Shown here in pieces: positions 1-10,402 of a DNA stretch of 10,402 bases. The first letter of the stretch is position 1; each line of letters opens with the position of its first letter. Under the pieces are notes generated by a model. It was not told the DNA's origin. It searched no databases and saw only the letters and a program-made list of their open reading frames with translations. A program made the position numbers and the translations under genes. The DNA lies in UHGV virus genome UHGV-0126656; one strand, given 5' to 3'. This DNA comes from a virus.

Positions 1-148
1 TTTTGGCGGATCGGTTGTGCCGGTGACGGTGAAATCACTCGCATTTCCTTCCTGAATACGGTAGTTATCAGGCGTGGCGCGGTGTGGCGGGGCGGTGGCG
101 GGAATATATCCGGCTGTGTATCCGGTGAAAGTGAATGGCCTGTATAGC

Positions 149-1458: not shown

Positions 1459-1883
1459 AACATCCTCCTTTTAACATTCAATCAATGCACATAACGAACA
1501 TCATGACCATCAGTAAAATCACTTCCCAGCGTTTCATTCTGCACCCAATTTCAGTCCATTTACTGCTGTATTCCTTGTTTCTGGCTTCTTTATACCCAGG
1601 TGGGCGGCGGGAAAACGTGACATAGATCCCGGTTTCGTTAATCGGTACAATTACGTCTGATTTTTGCGAAAATGGATTTATTGCAGTTGTAGTGCCAGCG
1701 GGGATTGTGAGAAAGGCCCGGGTAGGTTGCTAACTGCTTGGGCCTTTGTTTGGCGCGTGTACGTGAAAAATAGAAATTTGGCAGGGTAGTTGTAGGGATT
1801 TTTCGCGTATGGGCGTTTAAGGCGGGAAGGTTAATTCTAACGCGCGATTATAATTAAGAATAATCAATAGCTTATATTAAAGA

Positions 1884-1917
1884 GTGATTGGTCTGTATAG
1901 CAAAACCCGGCGCGGGT
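1884..1917 (-). terminator. Conserved motif copy 2 with weak hairpin and U-run (possible terminator or element boundary)
   Basis: Plus GTGATTGGTCTGTATAGCAAAACCCGGCGCGGG matches 131..164 (GTGAATGGCCTGTATAGCAAAAACCCGTCGCGGG) with 2 mismatches and 1 indel. On the minus strand a short hairpin (5-bp stem, 3-nt loop) is followed by TTTT. Confidence 0.35.
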
Positions 1918-1927
1918 CCTGGTGGAG

Positions 1928-2193: not shown

Positions 2194-4398
2194 TTAACGC
2201 CGCCGTGGTTGTAACATGCCTCCAGGTCTTTGCGACTCGCGCTGCATCAGGCGCATTGCTGTGTTTTCTATAGTCTGTTGCAACGCTTTTGAGTCGTCTT
2301 CAGTCCAGCCGTTTGTCGCCTGGATGTTGTTTGTTACGTTCAGTGTGATGCCGCCACCACTGCCAACCAGATCGCGGCCCGGTGTAACTCGTCCACCCTC
2401 GCCGGGGATCATGTACTGTTTCCCGCCAGTAGAGGTAAATAACTCAGGGACACCGTGCTCACCAACCCTGTAAAGATTGCCACCGTTAACCGCGCCGCCG
2501 TTGTAGCGACCACCGCCAAACAAGCCAGTAATGCCAGCCATCAAGGCGCTGATAGCTGACATTGCGACCATCGGGGCCGTCCCCATTGTCGCGGTAGCTG
2601 TCGCCGCTGCTGCCGGGGCCATTGATGATGCGATTGATGCGCCTGTTGCCGCTGCTGTTGCCGCTTGTCCGCTCATTGCGCTGGCGCTGGCTGCCTCGCT
2701 TAAGATCATTTGTTTGACGTATTCAGCGCCCATCTCAGCGATACTTCCCACCACTTTTCCGAGAATGGTAGTCCCGATATTGGCGAAAGCGGTTTCCAGG
2801 TTCTGCGTACCATTAAGCAGGCCGACAACGGCATTTGTAGCGCCACCACTCAGGCCATCAGCCATGTCACCAATCAGGCCATTAATCCCACCTTGCGCCC
2901 GGAATTGTTCCCACTGCGAGGCAAGCAATTCTTCTGCGTGCTGTTGTTTAAGCGCGTTTAGCGTTTCCTCGTTAATCATCTGTTTGTTGAATAGCTCATC
3001 AGCCTGTTGCATTTCAAGGGCATGGCGTTGTTTGAGCGCATCAACGGGATTAAATTGCTCATTAAGCTGTTTTGCTTTTTCTTCCAGTTCGATTTGATGC
3101 TCACGCGCGGCGTTTGTTTCGTAAATCAGGTGCGCAAGGTTTTTCATCTCACTAACCTGTTTTGCCGTTGCGTTAGCGCCCATTTCCTGAACGGCGTCCC
3201 ACATTTCAGCCTCTTTGCTACCCTCAGCAAAGCCCTGGTTAAGTCGTTCCAGTTCTGCGCGTTTCCGTTTCAGCGCTTCTTCTGCCGGATCTTTCTGCGC
3301 GCGTTTCGGTTTATTGCCACCTCCACCGCCATTGTCTTTCAGCTTAATATCAGTGGTGGCCTGCTGTGTCGGTAGCGTTGACACAAAACCCGTAGATTGA
3401 TTGTCTGGCGCTGCGCCTAAGAAGTCGGTTTGTTTGGCTTGAGCGCGGAATAAATCAAGGCCCGGCACAAACGGCTCAAAGGCTGCGGCAAGTGTCCATA
3501 ACTTATCAGCCAATGACGCAGAATCAGATTTCAGCGTTTTAAACCAGCCGGATAGCTCGCGGCAATAATCAGCCAGCGTTTTAATACCGCGACCGACCAG
3601 TTCAGTAACATGCAGCGTCTGGTCGATGGTTTCCAGTAACAGGCTAAAATTTGTTGATAGCTCTGTCATTGCCTGTTCCGTGGTTGTCGGCAGCTTGTTA
3701 AATTCTTTTTCGATTTCGCCTGATCCTTTCAGGATTGCATTTACTACATCCTCAGCCGTCAGTTTGCCATCCAACATGCGGCGACGTAGCTCACCCATTG
3801 AGATCCCCATCTGACTTGCTACGCGCCGCCATAGCTCCGGCATACCCTCCAGGATGCTGTTAAATTCCTCAGCACGGACAATACCGCCGTTAATAGATTG
3901 CCCTAACTGTCGCAAGGCGTTTGCGGCTTCTTCGGATGAACTACCACCAATACGCCCGATCTGCTGTAGTGTCTCTGTCAACTGTAAGATCTGGCCCCCG
4001 GTAGCGTTTGCATCAGACAAAGCTGAAGTAAGGCTTTCCCATAACTTAGTAGTATCCTCAATCTTCATGCCAGTTCGCTTGCTGATCTCAAGAATGCCGC
4101 TAAAATTAGCCTTAGCTTCAACCAGACTACCGGATAGCCGGGATACACGGGCGCGTAGTAGTTTTACGTTGTCCGCGATTTCAATAAAGCGTTTAGCCGC
4201 CATCATTAGCAGGCCAACGTTAACCGCCGCCGCCAGTTTGCTGATTGTCGTATTCAGTTTGTTGATTGAGTTATCAGCGCGCTTTGCGCCGCGTTCAATG
4301 CGATCGAATGCGTCGTCAGCTTGTTTCCCTGCGGTTAATAGCTTCCCTGTGCGCGCATCAACCTCATAATAAATTCTACCTACGTTTGTGTTACTCAT
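2194..4398 (-). CDS. Phage tail tape-measure-like protein (734 aa)
   Basis: Long, mostly helical protein with an N-terminal region typical of tape-measure domains (GMPELWRRVASQMGISMGELRRRMLDGKLTAEDVVNAI), a Gly run (GGGGGNKPKR), a coiled-coil middle, a C-terminal Ala/Gly/Thr/Ser-rich hydrophobic stretch and a Gly-rich tail (LYRVGEHGVPELFTSTGGKQYMIPGEGG). Classification is by resemblance; no search was run. Confidence 0.75.
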   Translation of the reverse strand: MSNTNVGRIYYEVDARTGKLLTAGKQADDAFDRIERGAKRADNSINKLNTTISKLAAAVNVGLLMMAAKRFIEIADNVKLLRARVSRLSGSLVEAKANFSGILEISKRTGMKIEDTTKLWESLTSALSDANATGGQILQLTETLQQIGRIGGSSSEEAANALRQLGQSINGGIVRAEEFNSILEGMPELWRRVASQMGISMGELRRRMLDGKLTAEDVVNAILKGSGEIEKEFNKLPTTTEQAMTELSTNFSLLLETIDQTLHVTELVGRGIKTLADYCRELSGWFKTLKSDSASLADKLWTLAAAFEPFVPGLDLFRAQAKQTDFLGAAPDNQSTGFVSTLPTQQATTDIKLKDNGGGGGNKPKRAQKDPAEEALKRKRAELERLNQGFAEGSKEAEMWDAVQEMGANATAKQVSEMKNLAHLIYETNAAREHQIELEEKAKQLNEQFNPVDALKQRHALEMQQADELFNKQMINEETLNALKQQHAEELLASQWEQFRAQGGINGLIGDMADGLSGGATNAVVGLLNGTQNLETAFANIGTTILGKVVGSIAEMGAEYVKQMILSEAASASAMSGQAATAAATGASIASSMAPAAAATATATMGTAPMVAMSAISALMAGITGLFGGGRYNGGAVNGGNLYRVGEHGVPELFTSTGGKQYMIPGEGGRVTPGRDLVGSGGGITLNVTNNIQATNGWTEDDSKALQQTIENTAMRLMQRESQRPGGMLQPRRR

Positions 4399-4640
4399 GT
4401 CCTGTATATCCGCGTTGTGCGGATACCTCCGATTGTTCTTTACTCTAATAATTCCGCCATGAAACAGTTTATTGCCGCTTCAGTGACTTCGTGTTCAGGT
4501 TTGCTTCAACCAATCACAAAAAACATCGTTTAATAGAATCAATGGCTTATAAAGCTGTATCAGCTATGCTTCTTTGTCAAAGCCACTGAAAATCAAGTTT
4601 TCCCAATGAAATCAATGCTGATATACATCCATATCGTTTT

Positions 4641-4657
4641 TAACGTAATGTACGTTA
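4641..4657. promoter_or_regulatory. Perfect 7-3-7 palindrome TAACGTA-ATG-TACGTTA (candidate operator)
   Basis: Read directly in the 290 bp gap between the 76-aa gene and the tape-measure-like gene; shape fits a dimeric HTH regulator binding site. Confidence 0.35.
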
Positions 4658-4687
4658 TGCGCACTGCGGGAAACGTACTGGATTTAT

Positions 4688-4918
4688 TTACTGGTCGCCG
4701 TTCAGTTCATGCAGAGTCTGTTCTGGCAATGAATCCAGCCAGTTTTCTGCATCCTCCCTGTAACACTCCAGGATGCAACGGTTTGTGAAGTTGATGAAAG
4801 CGGTCAGTGATTCTGCTTCGTAGTTCCTGTGCGCTCTTCTGGCCTGCTTACGTAGTTGTTTCGCTTCTGCCCGCTGGCCTTCGAGTATCTCCAGCCTGTC
4901 TGCAATATCTTGCTTCAT
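4688..4918 (-). CDS. Hypothetical small protein (76 aa)
   Basis: ATG at 4918 with a GAGGAG Shine-Dalgarno 6 nt upstream; 38 nt from the stop of the upstream gene. Charged, helical; no family recognised. Confidence 0.55.
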   Translation of the reverse strand: MKQDIADRLEILEGQRAEAKQLRKQARRAHRNYEAESLTAFINFTNRCILECYREDAENWLDSLPEQTLHELNGDQ

Positions 4919-4956
4919 GTTCAGCTCCTCGCGCGCGCATAGTACTTGTCCGAAAA

Positions 4957-5331
4957 TTAATCGCCCGTCCCATCATTAATATCGATTCCCACGCTGTGCA
5001 ACTGGCTATGAATGTCTCTGCGAATGAGAATTAAACGCCTGATGAACTCCATTTCCTCCGCGATCTGGTTGCTCGGCCCCGATTTCATGTCGATGATTTT
5101 ATTGATAGTTCCAAGCGAATATTCAGCCCACAGACGAAGCGTTTGGCGCTTCATGGCCTGTTTGCTCAGTGGCGAATGTTTCAGGTCTAAGACATGTTCT
5201 GCGAGGGTCTTAGCGATGCCCTGCATGATGCGTAGTGCCAACATGATGATTTTCTCCGGACTTGTGCTAATATAGTTCCCGAACATTGTTCCGAGACTGC
5301 TTATCCTGTTTGTCTTGTCCGATTTGTTCAT
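4957..5331 (-). CDS. Hypothetical protein (124 aa)
   Basis: ORF in the operon on the same strand; ATG at 5331 with a weak Shine-Dalgarno, preceded by an intergenic hairpin at 5350..5369. No family recognised. Confidence 0.5.
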   Translation of the reverse strand: MNKSDKTNRISSLGTMFGNYISTSPEKIIMLALRIMQGIAKTLAEHVLDLKHSPLSKQAMKRQTLRLWAEYSLGTINKIIDMKSGPSNQIAEEMEFIRRLILIRRDIHSQLHSVGIDINDGTGD

Positions 5332-5382
5332 TGGTCACATTGTTAAGTCAGCCGGGGTAATTCCCGGCTTTCTTTTATCCGA

Positions 5383-5925
5383 TCAGTACCGAATCCCTAT
5401 CGCATTGAATACGCGTTTCCGTTGCTCAGCTTCAGGATCGGCGGCCATTTCTGGTTCTGGCTCCGGCATAGACGGGGCGGCATCAAAATGCTCAATTTCA
5501 CGACCGAAATACGAGTTCAGGACAATACCTGCCGAACTATCCACTCCATCAAAATAGCGACGCTGTTCCTCGGTGAGACAGCTACCCAGACGTTCCTCAA
5601 CCTGCGCCATAAACTCAGCATCCGGTGAGAAGTACTCATCCGGAGTCGGAGCACCGCTCTGTTTGTGCATCTCCATTTTCTCTGCGTTCGTTTTCAGCCC
5701 GGCAATGCGTTTCTCCAGTCCGGCGGCTTTAATAGCGTCAGCAACGATTTGTGGGATCTGCGGTTTAATTGTTTCGATAACTTCATTGCTGATTAATTTA
5801 AACTGGGCCATACGGATCGCTTTAATCTGCTTATTTAACAGTGCGCGTTCCCCTTCGTTGGCGGTTTTATCACGCTGTGCTACCAGTTCATCGCCTTTGT
5901 TTGTCAGTACATCAAATGCGTCCAT
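5383..5925 (-). CDS. Hypothetical acidic protein (180 aa)
   Basis: ATG at 5925 with a GGAGGAG Shine-Dalgarno and 8 nt spacer; starts 17 nt after the stop of the upstream gene. Acidic, Pro/Glu-rich C-terminal segment (MPEPEPEMAADPEAEQ). A tail assembly chaperone or scaffold-like role is speculation only. Confidence 0.6.
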   Translation of the reverse strand: MDAFDVLTNKGDELVAQRDKTANEGERALLNKQIKAIRMAQFKLISNEVIETIKPQIPQIVADAIKAAGLEKRIAGLKTNAEKMEMHKQSGAPTPDEYFSPDAEFMAQVEERLGSCLTEEQRRYFDGVDSSAGIVLNSYFGREIEHFDAAPSMPEPEPEMAADPEAEQRKRVFNAIGIRY

Positions 5926-5942
5926 TGTCTTTTCTCCTCCGA

Positions 5943-6269
5943 TTATTTAAAAGTGCTTATTGACACGCCGAAACGACGACTTAATTCAAAAAGGAGTCGC
6001 GCCTTTGCAGTGCCTTCCATGTCTTCCGGCATTTCAGACTGAAGTTTATCAGCTACTTCATCAACAAGTGGCCGAACCGTTTCCACGAACTTGTCCGCAA
6101 TATAATCAGCAGAACGCATCACTTTTTCCTGGAATTCCTCACGGCGTTCCTGGGCGGCTGATTTAGGGGCTGTCGTGCGCTGAAAATAACTGTCTAATGA
6201 ATGCATGGCATCTGCTCCTTTTACTTTGATTGATGTTATTTCTTTAATTGTGTTTGCTTTGATTTTCAT
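5943..6269 (-). CDS. Hypothetical small protein (108 aa; alternative 87-aa form starting at 6206)
   Basis: ORF directly downstream of alpA on the same strand. The internal ATG at 6204..6206 has the better Shine-Dalgarno (AAGGAG, 8 nt spacer), so the true start may be 6206. Confidence 0.55.
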   Translation of the reverse strand: MKIKANTIKEITSIKVKGADAMHSLDSYFQRTTAPKSAAQERREEFQEKVMRSADYIADKFVETVRPLVDEVADKLQSEMPEDMEGTAKARLLFELSRRFGVSISTFK

Positions 6270-6345
6270 GCTGCCTATTCCTTCAGAAATTGCGGTAGCT
6301 AGCTTTTTAAATCAATAGGTTATTTGATAATCTCAGTAGCTGTTT

Positions 6346-6537
6346 TCATTGGTGGCGAGCGCCTTTGTTTTTATAGAATTCCAAAATCTCAGATCGGATA
6401 AACTTAATTCGTGCACCGACCGGAGTAACCGGAACGGGCCAACCTTTAATCTTGTTAATCCAGCGGAATATAGTGCGTCGGGTAACGCCGAATAAAGCGG
6501 CTACCTCGTTCACCGTCATTAATTCGCTATCATTCAT
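6346..6537 (-). CDS. alpA: AlpA-family prophage regulatory protein / excisionase-like HTH (63 aa)
   Basis: Translation MTVNEVAALFGVTRRTIFRWI... is a typical AlpA/Xis-type helix-turn-helix. GAGGTGA Shine-Dalgarno 4 nt before the ATG. Sits where AlpA-like regulators are usually found in P4-integrase islands. Confidence 0.8.
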   Translation of the reverse strand: MNDSELMTVNEVAALFGVTRRTIFRWINKIKGWPVPVTPVGARIKFIRSEILEFYKNKGARHQ

Positions 6538-6556
6538 GTTCTCACCTCAAAAAGTA

Positions 6557-6590
6557 GCGGTGAGGAAAAATATGGGAAAACCCTCACCGC
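6557..6590 (-). promoter_or_regulatory. alpA leader stem-loop (9-bp stem) with U-run, overlapping anti-SD/SD logic
   Basis: Minus strand reads GCGGUGAGG-16 nt loop-CCUCACCGC-UACUUUUU, then the SD GAGGUGAG and AUG. The CCUCACC arm can pair with either the upstream arm or the alpA Shine-Dalgarno. Confidence 0.35.
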
Positions 6591-6729
6591 GCCCTGAATG
6601 AAATTAAAGACCAACATTACTGTTGATACTTAATATTATATTCCTCATGTCCCTGTTTCACATCTTTTACCATATAGGGAAAGGGGATATTCTGTAATGT
6701 TTACAAAACTTTTAATTAGCAAAAAATAA

Positions 6730-6758
6730 TTGCGCATCTCACGTAATACAGGGATAAT
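6730..6758 (+). promoter_or_regulatory. Candidate sigma70 promoter (TTGCGC-17 nt-GATAAT)
   Basis: -35-like TTGCGC (6730..6735) and -10 GATAAT (6753..6758) with 17 nt spacing, pointing toward the plus-strand terminator at 6825..6851. Confidence 0.3.
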
Positions 6759-6764
6759 ATTACT

Positions 6765-6851
6765 CAAGGGCTGGTAACCCTTACTCAAAATGTGATCTAT
6801 AACTACAACGATTGATTTCACTTCCCCGCTCTCTCCGGCGGGATTTTTTTT
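6765..6851 (+). ncRNA. Candidate small RNA (~85 nt), divergent from alpA
   Basis: Bounded by the candidate promoter and a strong intrinsic terminator. No ORF (ATG TGA only). Has a 5-prime stem-loop (AAGGG-CUGGUAA-CCCUU) and an AU-rich linker before the terminator. Confidence 0.3.
6825..6851 (+). terminator. Rho-independent terminator (plus strand)
   Basis: GC hairpin (CCCGC ... GCGGG, 6825..6842) followed by eight T (6844..6851). No plus-strand CDS lies upstream. Confidence 0.6.
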
Positions 6852-7971
6852 GCCTGCAATCACCACATCAAAACTAATTAAAATTAGATGCCGTTTAAAC
6901 GCAATATAACGCATTCTGACGGCCTTAATTTTTGGCAATGCATTTGCTCAGGTGTGATTAGATTGATTCGTCTGGCGTGGAATGGTGCGGCGGTAATATC
7001 AGATCTCAGCGTTCTGTGTGGCGATTCCTCAGCTCTGAGGAGTGGGCGTCCGTCATTCAGTCTCAGCACCTTGCTCAAACGAGATCGGCTGCGATGGCGT
7101 TGTAGGCCGCATTCTGTCGTTTAATGAGACGTGCCTGATTGGACAATCTGAAATCTGGTTGGTGAGACTATTCAGGCGAGACTGTTCAGCGGGGAAAGCG
7201 GCGCATGTCGATGAATCCATTCCTGGATTAATCGGCGTTGTTCCGGTGTCTGGTGAAAATTTAATGAAATCGCATCAATTATAATGCGTCTAAATCGCTC
7301 TGTGGCGACGTGAAGTTTTCAGGTAAGCAAGTGCGGTTATATGTGTTCATCGCGTTACAGGCACCATTCCGTTCGAATTTGGCACGGTCAGGATGGTTTG
7401 CGGTGGTCGGCGGCGGGGATAAACTTGCTTGAGTGGTCACCTCAGCCTGCTGTGCGTCGTGTGATGGTACTGTCTGCACCTGGCTATACGCTGCTTTGCT
7501 GCTGTTTCCTGTCTGGTCTGTATACGCGATAAAACCCATCGGCTTTACAGTGAGTGAGTTTTTTGCGCTTTGCTTTCCATTCGGTTTGCTTACTGCTGCT
7601 GTGTGTCTGTGCGGTAGCTCAGAAAGCTGTTGACGATAACCATCACTGCTAAGCCCGTCTTTTAAGCTGGCAATTGCTCGAAGCCTTCCGAAGGCCCACC
7701 AATAAGAAATCACCCTTTGAGATATACCGCGCTCCCCATGAACGAATGCCATGATGGTTTGTTGGTCTGCTGTTCAGGTTGTACGTGAGTGAATGGGCGT
7801 TTCCAGCTTGCTGGAAATGATTGCGCTAATCAGCATGGTTAATGCTCGCAACCAGCCGACCTATCAGGCGGCGAAATAATTCTTCTGTTTAACTCTAGGC
7901 GACTCTCTATGACCGACCGGGAGGCTAAAAAACTCCCGTCGCCTAGAATTCTTAATAGTAGAATTCTTACT

Positions 7972-8082
7972 CGGCAACTTTTGACCCACCCTAACGGCAA
8001 CTTTTGACCCACCAATAACGGCAACTTTTGACCCACCTGAAGGCATAAATTGACCCACCCTAACGGCAACTTTTTACCCACC
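7972..8082. repeat. Iteron array (about 5 direct repeats, 23-24 bp period), putative replication origin
   Basis: AACGGCAACTTTTGACCCACC repeats beginning 7972, 7993, 8017 and 8062, with a degenerate copy at 8041..8059. Flanked at 7944..7969 by two TAGAATTCTTA repeats and at 7918..7938 by a hairpin. Lies just downstream of the Rep-like gene and its terminator. Confidence 0.7.
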
Positions 8083-8137: not shown

Positions 8138-8665
8138 TTATTTCATGTTGTACGGCTTGAATAATAACTGGTATTCGTTGCACTCCCTTTCTGCCGATCC
8201 TGGTATATAGCCTTCAGTACGCTCAACAAGTTTGAAGTGGTTGACCAGACGATCGAGGCATTTTTTAACCGTGTTTTTTGATAGCCTGGCTCGTTTGTCG
8301 ATTGTTCCCCTACCAACCCTGCACCATCCCAACGGTGAGTTTTTGCCAGTACCAGCGAAGTAACAAAGAGCACGTAGCACAGCCTCGTCGTTGACTGTAT
8401 GTTCTTTCTCCCATCTTTCGTACAGTTTGCGGGGCAATACTTCATCAAGTCGGTTCAATGTGTCCAGGTAGCGCAGGTTGCCACGCCAGGCTTGCTCCTG
8501 CTGTTTTGCCTCGTGATGATCTGTTTCCTCGTGATTATCTGGCGTGTGTTCTTCGTGTTTAGTCTCTTCGTTTTTGGGTGCTTTATTCCGTAACTCGTTA
8601 ATTTTATTTAAAAATTGACGAACATCATTGTTTGTTTCTTGTTCTACTGCTAGCATATCAGACAT
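8138..8665 (-). CDS. Putative iteron-binding replication initiator, winged-helix (phage O N-terminal-like), 175 aa
   Basis: The ORF track starts at 8779, but the ATG at 8663..8665 (MSDMLAVEQ...) has an AAGGAG Shine-Dalgarno 8 nt upstream and is preferred. C-terminal segment (AVLRALCYFAGTGKNSPLGWCRVGRGTIDKRARLSKNTVKKCLDRLVNHF) resembles winged-HTH replication initiator domains; acidic His/Glu-rich N-terminal region. Function inferred from fold-like motif plus the adjacent iterons. Confidence 0.5.
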   Translation of the reverse strand: MSDMLAVEQETNNDVRQFLNKINELRNKAPKNEETKHEEHTPDNHEETDHHEAKQQEQAWRGNLRYLDTLNRLDEVLPRKLYERWEKEHTVNDEAVLRALCYFAGTGKNSPLGWCRVGRGTIDKRARLSKNTVKKCLDRLVNHFKLVERTEGYIPGSAERECNEYQLLFKPYNMK

Positions 8666-8839
8666 GAGAAATTCTCCTTTAGCTTGTTTCTCATACCGCC
8701 CCCGGAATGTTGCAGCATGCCGGGGGCTTTTATTTGTGTTGATCCTATTTTCGAACTCTGGATCTTTCGTTGCAAACATGGATTTAAGTTCTTGATATTG
8801 AATAATTTATTCCACTTAATTGGAATAATGGAATAATTA

Positions 8840-8969: not shown

Positions 8970-10178
8970 TCATTCCGGTTCTAGAGGATTGCCGTTACCT
9001 GCCAATATTGAATCAATAGCGTCGGCGTAATCCTGCATCATTGCTCGCCGTTGCTTCAGGTAGGCCGCCTGGTTATAAATCGCCCTGATTCCCTTTGGAA
9101 CATGGGCCAATTGGATTTCGACCCAATCAGGGTTATACCTGCCGGATTCGTTAAGCGCCGTGCTGAATGTTGTGCGCCAGCCGTGGCCTGTAACCGTCGA
9201 TTTGAATCCGATACGCTCCAGGGCTTTAAGGATGGCACTGGCTGAAAGTGGCTTATCCATGAATCGACCAGGGAACACAAAAGCACTGTATCCGCTGCGG
9301 GTAAACTGGTCCTGTAATAGCTCGACCGCCTGCCGGGATAGCGGGACCACATGCGGGCGGCGGGCCTTCATGACTTCAGCGGGTAGGGTGATGGTTGCCG
9401 ATTCCAGATCTACCCACTCCCAGCGCATTAAACGCAGTTCTGCGGTCCTTAGGGCGCTTAATATAAGCAAACGTATTGCCGTCTGAATCTGAACGCTCCC
9501 GGCTCTCTCAAGGGCTTTGTAGAAGGCCGGGATTTCACTAATTTGCAGCCATGCGTTATGACCTGGGCGTCTGGCTTTCAATGCCGTGTCCAGATCTGCA
9601 ACCGGATTTCTGCTAACCAGTTCGGTGATAACGGCAAATTTGAAGATCTCCCCGATACGCTGGCGTAATTTCCTGGCCTGTTCCGGTGCGGTGCGCTCTT
9701 TCTTCTGAAGCAATGCCAGTACGTCACGGGCGGTTATATCAACGATTGAACGTTTTCCCAGCACGGTGTAAACATCTTTCTCTAGTGCCGATCTGACCTG
9801 CTTTGTATAGCTCTCACTCCAACCGCTCACTCTGGTAGCAAACCAGTCTTCCGCTACCGTCTTAAAACTTGCCGCCATGTTGAGCGCATCAATGGCTTTC
9901 TCCTTGCGCGCTTCTTCCATTGGGTCAATTCCCTGGGCGATGAGTAAACGGCTCTCTGTGGCGCGTTTACGTGCTTCCTTCAAGGTAATCAGCGGATATA
10001 CCCCAATAGCCTGTAACCGCTCTTTCTTGTCTATCCAGTACCGGAATCGCCAGTATTTGCTGCCATTGGGATGCACCAGCAAGAACAGGCCAGGTGTCTG
10101 TGAATCGGTGAGTTTGTAGGGCTTGTCCTTCGGCTGGGCGGCCTCTATGCCCTTTGCTGTCAGTGGTGTCTTGCTCAA
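8970..10178 (-). CDS. int: Tyrosine recombinase, P4-type phage integrase (402 aa)
   Basis: N-terminal arm-binding signature (PYKLTDSQTPGLFLLVHPNGSKYWRFRYW) and C-terminal catalytic region (HGWRTTFSTALNESG ... VEIQLAHVPKGIRAIYNQAAYLKQRRAMMQDYAD) characteristic of P4-family integrases. Start codon is TTG at 10176..10178 with a GAGGT Shine-Dalgarno 8 nt upstream. Confidence 0.9.
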   Translation of the reverse strand: MSKTPLTAKGIEAAQPKDKPYKLTDSQTPGLFLLVHPNGSKYWRFRYWIDKKERLQAIGVYPLITLKEARKRATESRLLIAQGIDPMEEARKEKAIDALNMAASFKTVAEDWFATRVSGWSESYTKQVRSALEKDVYTVLGKRSIVDITARDVLALLQKKERTAPEQARKLRQRIGEIFKFAVITELVSRNPVADLDTALKARRPGHNAWLQISEIPAFYKALERAGSVQIQTAIRLLILSALRTAELRLMRWEWVDLESATITLPAEVMKARRPHVVPLSRQAVELLQDQFTRSGYSAFVFPGRFMDKPLSASAILKALERIGFKSTVTGHGWRTTFSTALNESGRYNPDWVEIQLAHVPKGIRAIYNQAAYLKQRRAMMQDYADAIDSILAGNGNPLEPE

Positions 10179-10366
10179 AACCGGATACCTCGATCTAACG
10201 ACTCGATAACCCCGCTCATGTATCCGGCGCGTTCGGTTGCGTTCGGCAGGATAAGTAACGGGCGTATTAAGGGGAACACCTTACAGCACAAGGGCTAACG
10301 ATGAAATAGAATTGTTCGAATGCTGGAAGAAATGTTACTCATCACTTCTTCCTGAGGGAACGACTT

Positions 10367-10402
10367 ATGAAACTAAAGACCACATTGTTCGGCAATGTAT
10401 AT
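10367..10402 (+). CDS. Partial CDS, 5-prime end only (MKLKTTLFGNVY...), unknown product
   Basis: ATG at 10367 preceded by a GAGGGAA Shine-Dalgarno with 6 nt spacer; ORF runs off the window. Divergent from int. Confidence 0.35.
   Translation, partial: MKLKTTLFGNVY

Follow-up and report, generated by a model that had tools for sequence, protein, structure and literature searches.

A lone tape measure gene in a CPZ-55-family island of Escherichia coli: a candidate satellite of mEpimmI-like temperate siphoviruses

What is a gene for a phage tape measure protein (TMP) doing in a small mobile island in which no other virion gene is recognised? The question is raised by the virus genome UHGV-0126656, of which a stretch of 10,402 nucleotides, called the window below, was analyzed at its full length. 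An original prediction, made from the letters alone, had described a lone and intact TMP gene in a small integrase-bearing island. Both the open reading frames (ORFs) and the TMP profile matches bear this description out. We found that the window contains the whole of a ~10.3-kb island of the CPZ-55 family, lying between the E. coli genes eutA and eutB. In our best reading this island is a satellite of temperate siphoviruses resembling the mEpimmI phages, or was active as one until recently. That its TMP is a satellite-encoded replacement built into chimeric helper tails is a proposal made by analogy, which we hold to be about evenly balanced between true and false.

The TMP gene (2194-4398, minus strand) is an uninterrupted ORF of 734 aa and represents an allele class that we call class A. 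Its product matches Pfam TMP_3 (9.6e-54, 182 bits for a cut-off of 41), PHROG 1538 (2e-110, residues 4-728) and the NCBIfam model tape_meas_nterm (TIGR02675; 1.5e-19, 70 bits for a cut-off of 21.35). Residues 28-700 are also matched (3.7e-111) by PDB chain 9occ_M, i.e. TMP gp18 of the Shigella siphophage Sf11 in the solved tail structure 9OCC. The length of 734 aa compares with 735 aa in the closest phage homologue, the TMP of mEp013 (53% identity). Two hydrophobic segments are present, at residues 50-75 and 601-630; the C-terminal third is hydrophobic and Ala/Gly-rich, A+G+S+T accounting for 46-66% of residues 501-650. Ordinary phage TMP genes are embedded in a tail module with a chaperone pair and tip genes, whereas no tail, chaperone, tip, head or other virion gene besides the TMP was found in the window by Pfam and PHROG scans. 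Two outcomes had been named beforehand as speaking against the lone gene: a generic coiled-coil or SMC-like protein, and a tail or head cluster lying just beyond the window. The former is rejected by the TMP profile and PDB matches, the latter by the boundaries of the island, which ends inside the window with eut genes as its only flanks.

These boundaries were located as follows. The sequence corresponds to the interval between eutA and eutB in E. coli, where K-12 has the "cryptic prophage" CPZ-55. The first 55 nucleotides of the window (1-55, plus strand) are the 3' end of eutA, as in the two related loci L001 and L002, and positions 10367-10402 (plus strand), which read MKLKTTLFGNVY, are the 5' end of eutB, annotated at this very point in relatives. 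Attachment (att) sites were searched as exact repeats between the window ends 1-150 and 10251-10402. The longest exact match is an 8-bp core, CTTCCTGA in the plus-strand reading, present at the eutA-side junction (48-55) and at the eutB-side junction (10348-10355); the eutA stop codon TGA (53-55) is included in the first copy. Identical junctions were observed in the loci integrated at the eut site, insofar as their sequence extends to that end, and the islands of these relatives are likewise flanked by eut genes only. With both ends of the island within the window and only eut genes on each side, no tail or head cluster adjoins it. The best explanation of these junctions is insertion at the 8-bp core, overlapping the eutA stop codon, by the tyrosine integrase IntZ (8970-10178, minus strand), which has the P4-type domain set (Pfam Arm-DNA-bind_3, Phage_int_M and Phage_integrase) and is 91% identical to IntZ of K-12.

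To place this TMP among its relatives we examined the distribution of the locus in 5,426 complete E. coli genomes. The module of small genes located upstream of the TMP ("alpA" to p76, described below) is present in 251 of them. The non-coding leader that separates this module from the TMP was found in 78 genomes, once per genome and always on the chromosome, and a large TMP-like gene follows it wherever the locus was examined. In the E. coli loci that were fetched the TMP ORF is intact in all cases (11/11; 726-790 aa), and in 13 metagenome loci, found by the leader pattern, TMP alignments are full length wherever the contig permits. The alleles fall into at least three classes, which are 31-41% identical to one another. 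Class A, that of the window, comprises 7 loci (732-735 aa, 94-99% identical within the class). Class B (726 aa; PHROG 1538, 9e-103) includes the allele of ATCC 8739 and is ~31-38% identical to class A. Class C (790 aa, locus L007) is ~41% identical to both A and B, and a further locus (L041) hints at a fourth type. All classes share the leader, the N-terminal ~45 aa and the C-terminal ~100 aa, and differ in the middle. The ratio of nonsynonymous to synonymous substitutions (dN/dS) is 0.07-0.17 in class A (at dS 0.2-0.33) and 0.11-0.14 in class B (at dS 0.35-0.50), with constraint in every segment of the protein, a pattern which indicates purifying selection.

The leader (4399-4687, minus strand, 289 bp) had been described in the original prediction as a 290-bp gap. 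The spacing is as announced, but the region is a strongly conserved non-coding element rather than a mere gap, so that the TMP may be its own transcription unit. The leader comprises a Shine-Dalgarno (SD) sequence and a hairpin TATCCGC-N5-GCGGATA, which sits between the SD sequence and the ATG. It is 79-99% identical across 13 loci whose TMPs share only 31-41% identity, and is better conserved than the genes flanking it on both sides. No blastn match to it was found in 50,697 phage records, and no likeness to the sequence upstream of the TMP genes of mEp013 or of the mEpimmI-like prophage L014; a phage-derived pac site or promoter was rejected on these two comparisons. A structured RNA was rejected as well: despite a fold z-score of -3.1, no Rfam family reached threshold and a single covarying pair was found in 12 sequences. 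A consensus scan gave no sigma-70 promoter in the leader. As it has no phage counterpart, no Rfam match, no consensus promoter and almost no covariation, the leader looks like a control element acting at the DNA level. A 14-mer, ATAAGCCATTGATT, occurs in it at 4537-4550 and again at 1862-1875 and 6310-6323 (minus strand, up to 2 mismatches). Three matches compare with 0.10 expected, and none of 200 shuffles reached three. The sites lie in the leader, 3' of the TMP terminator and 41 nt upstream of p108, all in intergenic positions upstream of a gene block, and the 14-mer may be a candidate regulatory site marking co-regulated transcription units.

Comparison of the islands shows free reassortment of the TMP alleles, both with two types of upstream module and with two integrase/att sites. 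The class A allele occurs behind the module of the window (p108-p180-p124-p76), behind a second module type ending in a TerS-like gene and a gene for a protein of 109-197 aa, here called X, and also in islands with a different integrase located at ychJ/rssA. A 99.8%-identical allele is found in another backbone (TOK-001). Among the metagenome loci, several combinations of TMP class and upstream module were observed, which fits a role of the leader and of the conserved tmp 5' end as a recombination joint. Further genes related to virion assembly were identified in sister islands. Their TerS-like gene is of the Sf6 type (PF20901, 2e-13), and some carry HNH endonuclease genes. In locus L028 a tail completion protein resembling HK97 gp10 (4672-5115; PF04883, 27.7 bits for a cut-off of 21.4; PHROG 5, 1.8e-12) is encoded between leader and TMP. 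There the tail completion gene is the first after the leader and precedes the TMP, which suggests that the leader serves the whole cassette. In locus L030 the TMP slot is occupied by a tail assembly protein similar to lambda gpI (5327-5863; PHROG 32, 3.5e-34).

The K-12 element CPZ-55 (intZ, yffL-yffS) can be re-examined in this light. It has the same insertion site and att core as the island of the window, its intZ and yffL products are 91% and 98% identical to those of the island, yffM belongs to the family of the 95-aa core of p124 and yffP to the X family. The yffO product is a member of the Sf6-type TerS-like family, 48% identical to the island TerS-like protein. CPZ-55 differs by the absence of the alpA-like/p108/p180 block, of the leader and of the TMP. 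The K-12 sequence just past yffP aligns to window positions 1690-1815, 3' of the TMP, and it is therefore precisely the cassette of leader and TMP that is missing there. By this alignment, CPZ-55 of K-12 appears as a reduced sibling of the window island.

Which phages might supply the missing tail parts? Among phage TMPs, the nearest relatives belong to the mEpimmI coliphages, with mEp013 at the head; the identity of other mEpimmI TMPs is 43-44% over the full length and rises to 57-65% in the C-terminal part. These phages are temperate siphoviruses with ~130-nm tails, in whose virions the TMP was detected (PMC11893012). The TMPs of mEp013 and mEp021, together with Sf11 gp18, resemble the island protein by nearly full-length homology, by the motif NVG.I.Y.VDA.T and by a similar length. 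The gene context is different: the phage gene lies inside a tail module, between the tube/DUF6246 genes and the M/L/K/I/J tip genes, while the island gene is alone and the leader ahead of it has no phage counterpart. The prophage L014 shows the TMP in this normal context, from TerS through the J protein, and its TerS matches the island TerS-like proteins (E 1e-8 to 1e-10). Two independent island genes, TMP and TerS-like, thus point to one phage lineage. For the tail of 80alpha, a pairing of TMP residues 1-37 and the tail completion protein is described at the neck, with the C-termini attached to the tip protein (PMC11661146). By analogy, the ends conserved among the island alleles would be those expected to touch helper parts.

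Two side observations concern the phage gene itself. In mEpimmI phages, moron genes on the opposite strand stand between the upstream tail genes and the TMP gene (L003 8900-8970, L014 11900-11960), and a conserved inverted repeat, TATACAAAATGG...CCATTTTGTATA, lies ahead of the TMP gene. The phage TMP may also have a control region of its own.

With a size of ~10 kb, its own integrase and att sites and no full set of virion genes, the island has the constitution of a phage satellite. Hallmarks of known satellite types were searched in the window. Neither a head gene, such as those for capsid, portal, protease and connectors in phage-inducible chromosomal islands that form their own capsids (cf-PICIs), nor the companions found in the elements resembling phage-inducible chromosomal islands (PLEs), i.e. 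tail assembly chaperone and baseplate hub, were matched among its proteins. The P4 hallmarks (psu/delta/sid, alpha primase-helicase, cos) gave no match in the window either, and only the integrase domain set is P4-like. A possible trace of mobility comes from a sister island. A 10.6-kb metagenome contig (L019; Logan SRR23253227), which carries HNH, TerS-like and X genes with a class B TMP, contains at positions 150-300 an attP junction in which the core TCAGGAAG links the arm of the eutA side to that of the int side. This junction corresponds either to an excised circle or to a tandem array. Taken together, the TerS-like, HNH, tail completion and gpI-like genes of sister islands, the relationship to one phage group, the attP junction and the signature of purifying selection lend the satellite idea comparative support, and partly sustain it.

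The following course of events would account for these observations. During replication of a helper, on which we infer that the island depends, it would be excised by IntZ and the helix-turn-helix (HTH)/excisionase-type protein, and would then replicate by means of the YffL-like protein and the iterons. At that stage the TMP would be expressed from the conserved ~280-bp leader. The protein would keep ends compatible with the helper, its N-terminal ~45 residues contacting the tail completion protein at the neck and its C-terminal ~100 residues the tail tip, and would differ in the middle. It would nucleate tube polymerisation on helper tip complexes with the tube, chaperone and terminator proteins of the helper, giving chimeric tails of ~110-117 nm, and DNA would be delivered from these particles with a "pilot" protein encoded by the island itself. 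The selective benefit could lie in escape from blocks directed at the helper TMP (inhibitors of the Tab/Rta type, superinfection exclusion) and in the diversion of helper tail parts. A more general proposal, which we put forward tentatively and consider distinctly short of an even chance, is that CPZ-55-type islands form an unrecognised family of E. coli satellites with a swappable "tail-gene slot" under the ~280-bp control region. In this joint proposal the slot would hold a TMP allele, a tail completion protein with a TMP, or a gpI-like protein; the cassette would decide which helper tails are usable and would let the DNA enter cells protected against the helper TMP, and K-12 CPZ-55 would be a remnant devoid of the cassette.

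Several observations weigh against a satellite with its own tape measure. The attP junction comes from a single contig, which a tandem array explains equally well; the attP sequence is absent from IMG/VR and from JGI metagenome contigs, and the leader is found in IMG/VR only as one short fragment. No TerS- or Rpp-like gene, pac or cos site, capsid-size factor or tail assembly chaperone was recognised in the window. Most E. coli genomes with the alpA-to-p76 module have an IS1-associated replacement instead of the TMP. In this commonest variant (L009/L010, 2800-6700) the TMP region is replaced by IS1, murI-like and gadC-like genes and a decarboxylase pseudogene, and the 76-aa gene is truncated at the junction. 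K-12 CPZ-55 lacks the leader and the TMP as well, and an island can thus persist in the chromosome without the gene. Among isolated phages the best TMP match reaches no more than 53% identity, and a helper can be named only as a candidate. None of 60 listed leader-bearing genomes was among the 35 genomes with an mEpimmI-like TerL, a result which is uninformative, since ~0.5 co-occurrences are expected by chance.

The main rival to a replacement TMP is tail sabotage as a population-level defence. The island TMP would then be a decoy or poison subunit, admitted by its helper-like ends to the tails of infecting mEpimmI-like or related siphoviruses and producing dead-end or non-infectious tails through its divergent middle, and neighbouring cells would be protected with or without transfer of the island. 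Tail assembly is indeed a known target of the prophage and satellite elements Tai (PMC11364771), Tab (PMC10884400) and Rta of PLE11. The TMP occupies a variable, cargo-like end of the island, other variants carrying AIPR, toxin-antitoxin and further cargo genes, the diversity of alleles with conserved ends resembles an arms race, and packaging genes are absent from the window island. We nevertheless consider sabotage rather unlikely. The protein is full length, phage-sized and constrained throughout, whereas a poison subunit need not keep everything; the known blockers of tail assembly are small dedicated proteins and not TMP homologues; and the association of the TMP with TerS-like and tail completion genes in sister islands suits the building of particles more than wrecking alone. 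A PADLOC search gave zero matches for the TMP.

Two other explanations were considered. The gene could be an inert relic of a decayed prophage tail module, without present function, as might be expected from the annotation of CPZ-55 as a cryptic prophage in K-12, from the loss of the TMP in many family members and from the damaged or missing integrase of some copies. Yet dN/dS is 0.07-0.17 at dS up to 0.5, and these low values in every segment exclude a decaying relic; every complete TMP copy examined is intact, no fragments of other tail or head genes lie beside it, and a conserved leader precedes the same cassette at two att sites and in different backbones. All variants are moreover ~10 kb long, with a layout of replication and regulation unlike that of a 50-kb mEpimmI phage. 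A relic in any form is, of the explanations considered, the most improbable. A TMP homologue co-opted for a role outside the virion, such as a membrane-active effector or an exclusion protein blocking DNA entry by related phages at the inner membrane, seems very improbable too. TMPs do take part in membrane passage and contact host factors of the inner membrane (HK97 and lambda; cited in PMC11364771 and PMC10884400), and the two hydrophobic segments of the island protein (50-75 and 601-630) would suit this role. The whole architecture of a TMP is kept, however, including its length and both virion-contact ends, which an exclusion protein would not need, and the tail completion and gpI-like genes of sister islands indicate a part in tail assembly. 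Reading of the N-terminal sequence by eye, no prediction tool having been run, brought up neither a signal peptide nor a lipobox. A replacement TMP carried by a satellite thus remains our preferred reading.

We now turn to the other genes of the island, which all lie on the minus strand. The order is as follows: IntZ, a YffL homologue, the iterons, ~1.4 kb without annotation, an HTH gene, p108, p180, p124, p76, the leader, the TMP, a terminator-like repeat and three cargo genes (62, 78 and ~222-259 aa). The TMP was originally given as the last gene of its operon, which does not hold, three more genes following on the same strand. The upstream genes had been called coupled: their spacing is close (17-76 nt), but no overlaps are present. 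As to the "alpA" gene (6346-6537), it encodes a 63-aa HTH_17/excisionase-type regulator (Pfam HTH_17, 4.4e-9; PHROG 66, 2.9e-9), in agreement with a regulator of this kind, but the Pfam AlpA model itself matches at E = 0.086 only, and the score with TIGR01764 (26.4 bits) is below the cut-off of 28.8. The "Rep" named beside the iterons is the YffL homologue (8138-8779, 213 aa). The iterons are indeed present, five in number, ~23 bp each (7958-8082, core TTGACCCACC, repeat family D1); they adjoin this gene and form a putative origin. Its product is a possible replication initiator, for which only weak matches to DnaD/Rep PHROGs were obtained (PHROG 186 and 270; 3e-4 and 1e-3).

The four small proteins encoded between the HTH gene and the leader, p108 (5943-6269, 108 aa), p180 (5383-5925, 180 aa), p124 (4957-5331, 124 aa) and p76 (4688-4918, 76 aa), have no meaningful match in Pfam, PHROGs, NCBIfam, PADLOC or PDB. 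A tail assembly chaperone was sought among the upstream genes and rejected, the window proteins giving no meaningful match of this kind in Pfam, PHROG, NCBIfam or PDB. In the comparison of islands p108 is a core family. The helical p180 was found in E. coli and Shigella only, plus one partial Salmonella fragment, and its model is of low confidence (predicted local distance difference test, pLDDT, 69). The conserved core of p124 (4957-5244, 95 aa) defines a family common to all island variants compared. Its AlphaFold model is a confident but generic three-helix bundle (pLDDT 88), for which Foldseek gave no informative match (best E 0.22). Searched with this family, 100,044 species genomes yielded one locus beyond E. 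coli, in a Citrobacter metagenome-assembled genome. The position of p76 is taken by the TerS-like and X genes in sister islands. The X family has no Pfam, PHROG or PDB match, and a relationship to the phage DUF6246 protein was rejected (hhalign probability 0.1). No defence system was matched by PADLOC for the TMP or the small proteins; the HTH gene alone resembles mad1 (9.3e-11), a generic HTH match.

Downstream of the TMP, a repeat with a terminator-like hairpin (1883-1922, minus strand; families D2 and D9) is a copy of an element present at 130-170. These direct repeats of ~40 nt (also 973-995) bracket the three-gene cargo block. The block is composed of a 62-aa protein without assigned function (1270-1458), which is kept 3' of the TMP in many sister islands, a 78-aa HTH DNA-binding protein (1014-1250; PHROG 4745, 1.9e-5) and a terminal gene at the yffS position (194-973). 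The latter is 85% identical to its homologue in L001; its maximal ORF is 259 aa, its probable start is the ATG at 862, and an HTH-like N-terminal part is followed by a coiled coil. In TOK-001 the same TMP allele is not followed by this block, which may therefore be an optional cassette. Other variants, among them the island of O157:H7 PV15-279 (L012, 14688-15537), have as cargo a toxin pair of the YafO family or a protein of the AIPR family, so the island family also moves toxin-antitoxin and AIPR-type genes. Variation was also observed on the replication side. Replication modules, of the YffL type or others, are swapped among islands, with 28-31% identity at the YffL position in L001 and L002. 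In the ~1.4 kb that separate the HTH gene from the iterons (6538-7957) no genes are annotated; a putative 157-aa ORF there (7279-7752) is 87% conserved in L001, where it is likewise unannotated. One metagenome contig (L040, 6972-8541) shows a partial integrase and a yffL-like gene after a complete TMP island, which suggests that islands are accreted or arranged in tandem at the eut site.

To our knowledge, the view before 2025-26 was that satellites alter capsids and packaging yet accept tails unchanged, and a satellite TMP built into helper tails has so far been shown only for cholera-phage satellites (PLE, with one lytic myovirus). If the island TMP is such a protein, tail reprogramming by satellites extends to temperate siphoviruses of E. 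coli, its minimal version is a single gene, and an old "cryptic prophage" of K-12 has to be reinterpreted. The alleles, with their conserved ends, variable middle and common leader, would then be a natural series in which to map the TMP parts that must match the helper. The system would be tractable, as a class B island is present in ATCC 8739 and K-12 is a plating host for mEpimmI phages. If sabotage were true instead, this would be the first defence having a structural homologue as its weapon.

The original prediction had stated that nothing is established for such an architecture. This has to be revised, as satellite TMPs are documented in PLEs (PMC12987554), and putative ones are reported in cf-PICIs and the mycobacterial EPIPs (10.64898/2025.12.02.691453); no description of the present island family as a satellite was found in the literature searched. 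The PLEs of V. cholerae, whose helper is ICP1, all encode a TMP; PLE virions contain the PLE TMP and lack that of ICP1, and deletion of the PLE tmp lowers transduction by ~99.9% (PMC12987554, Nature 2026). The likeness lies in a TMP, only distantly related to the helper's, which is encoded by a small integrative satellite with no tail of its own; in PLE it takes the place of the helper TMP in chimeric tails and is needed for transfer, and this mechanism is the one put forward for the island. The differences are as follows: the PLE TMP has a tail assembly chaperone and a baseplate hub as partners, neither of which was found in the window; its helper is a lytic myovirus, whereas the likely helpers here are temperate siphoviruses; and the PLE TMP is 95 aa shorter than that of the helper, compared with 734 versus 735 aa here.

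Satellites with a predicted TMP gene are also found outside Vibrio. Putative tmp genes were reported in cf-PICIs (PMC12987554, Extended Data Fig. 10), and EPIPs carry a predicted one, their particles having an altered tail length (10.64898/2025.12.02.691453). Both encode capsid, connector or terminase proteins in addition, whereas the island of the window has no other recognisable virion protein. Tai, which targets tail assembly (PMC11364771), Tab, which recognises the TMP (PMC10884400), and Rta are similarly borne by prophages or satellites and act on the tail assembly of a helper or invader, Tab and Rta through the TMP. They are small unrelated blockers of assembly, while the gene of the window is itself a TMP, and their homologues were not detected here by Pfam, PHROG or PADLOC. 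Satellite TMPs are thus already a known kind. What this locus adds is an E. coli family in which the TMP is possibly the sole virion-related gene, the exchange of alleles and tail parts behind a shared leader, the link to mEpimmI phages and a new interpretation of CPZ-55.

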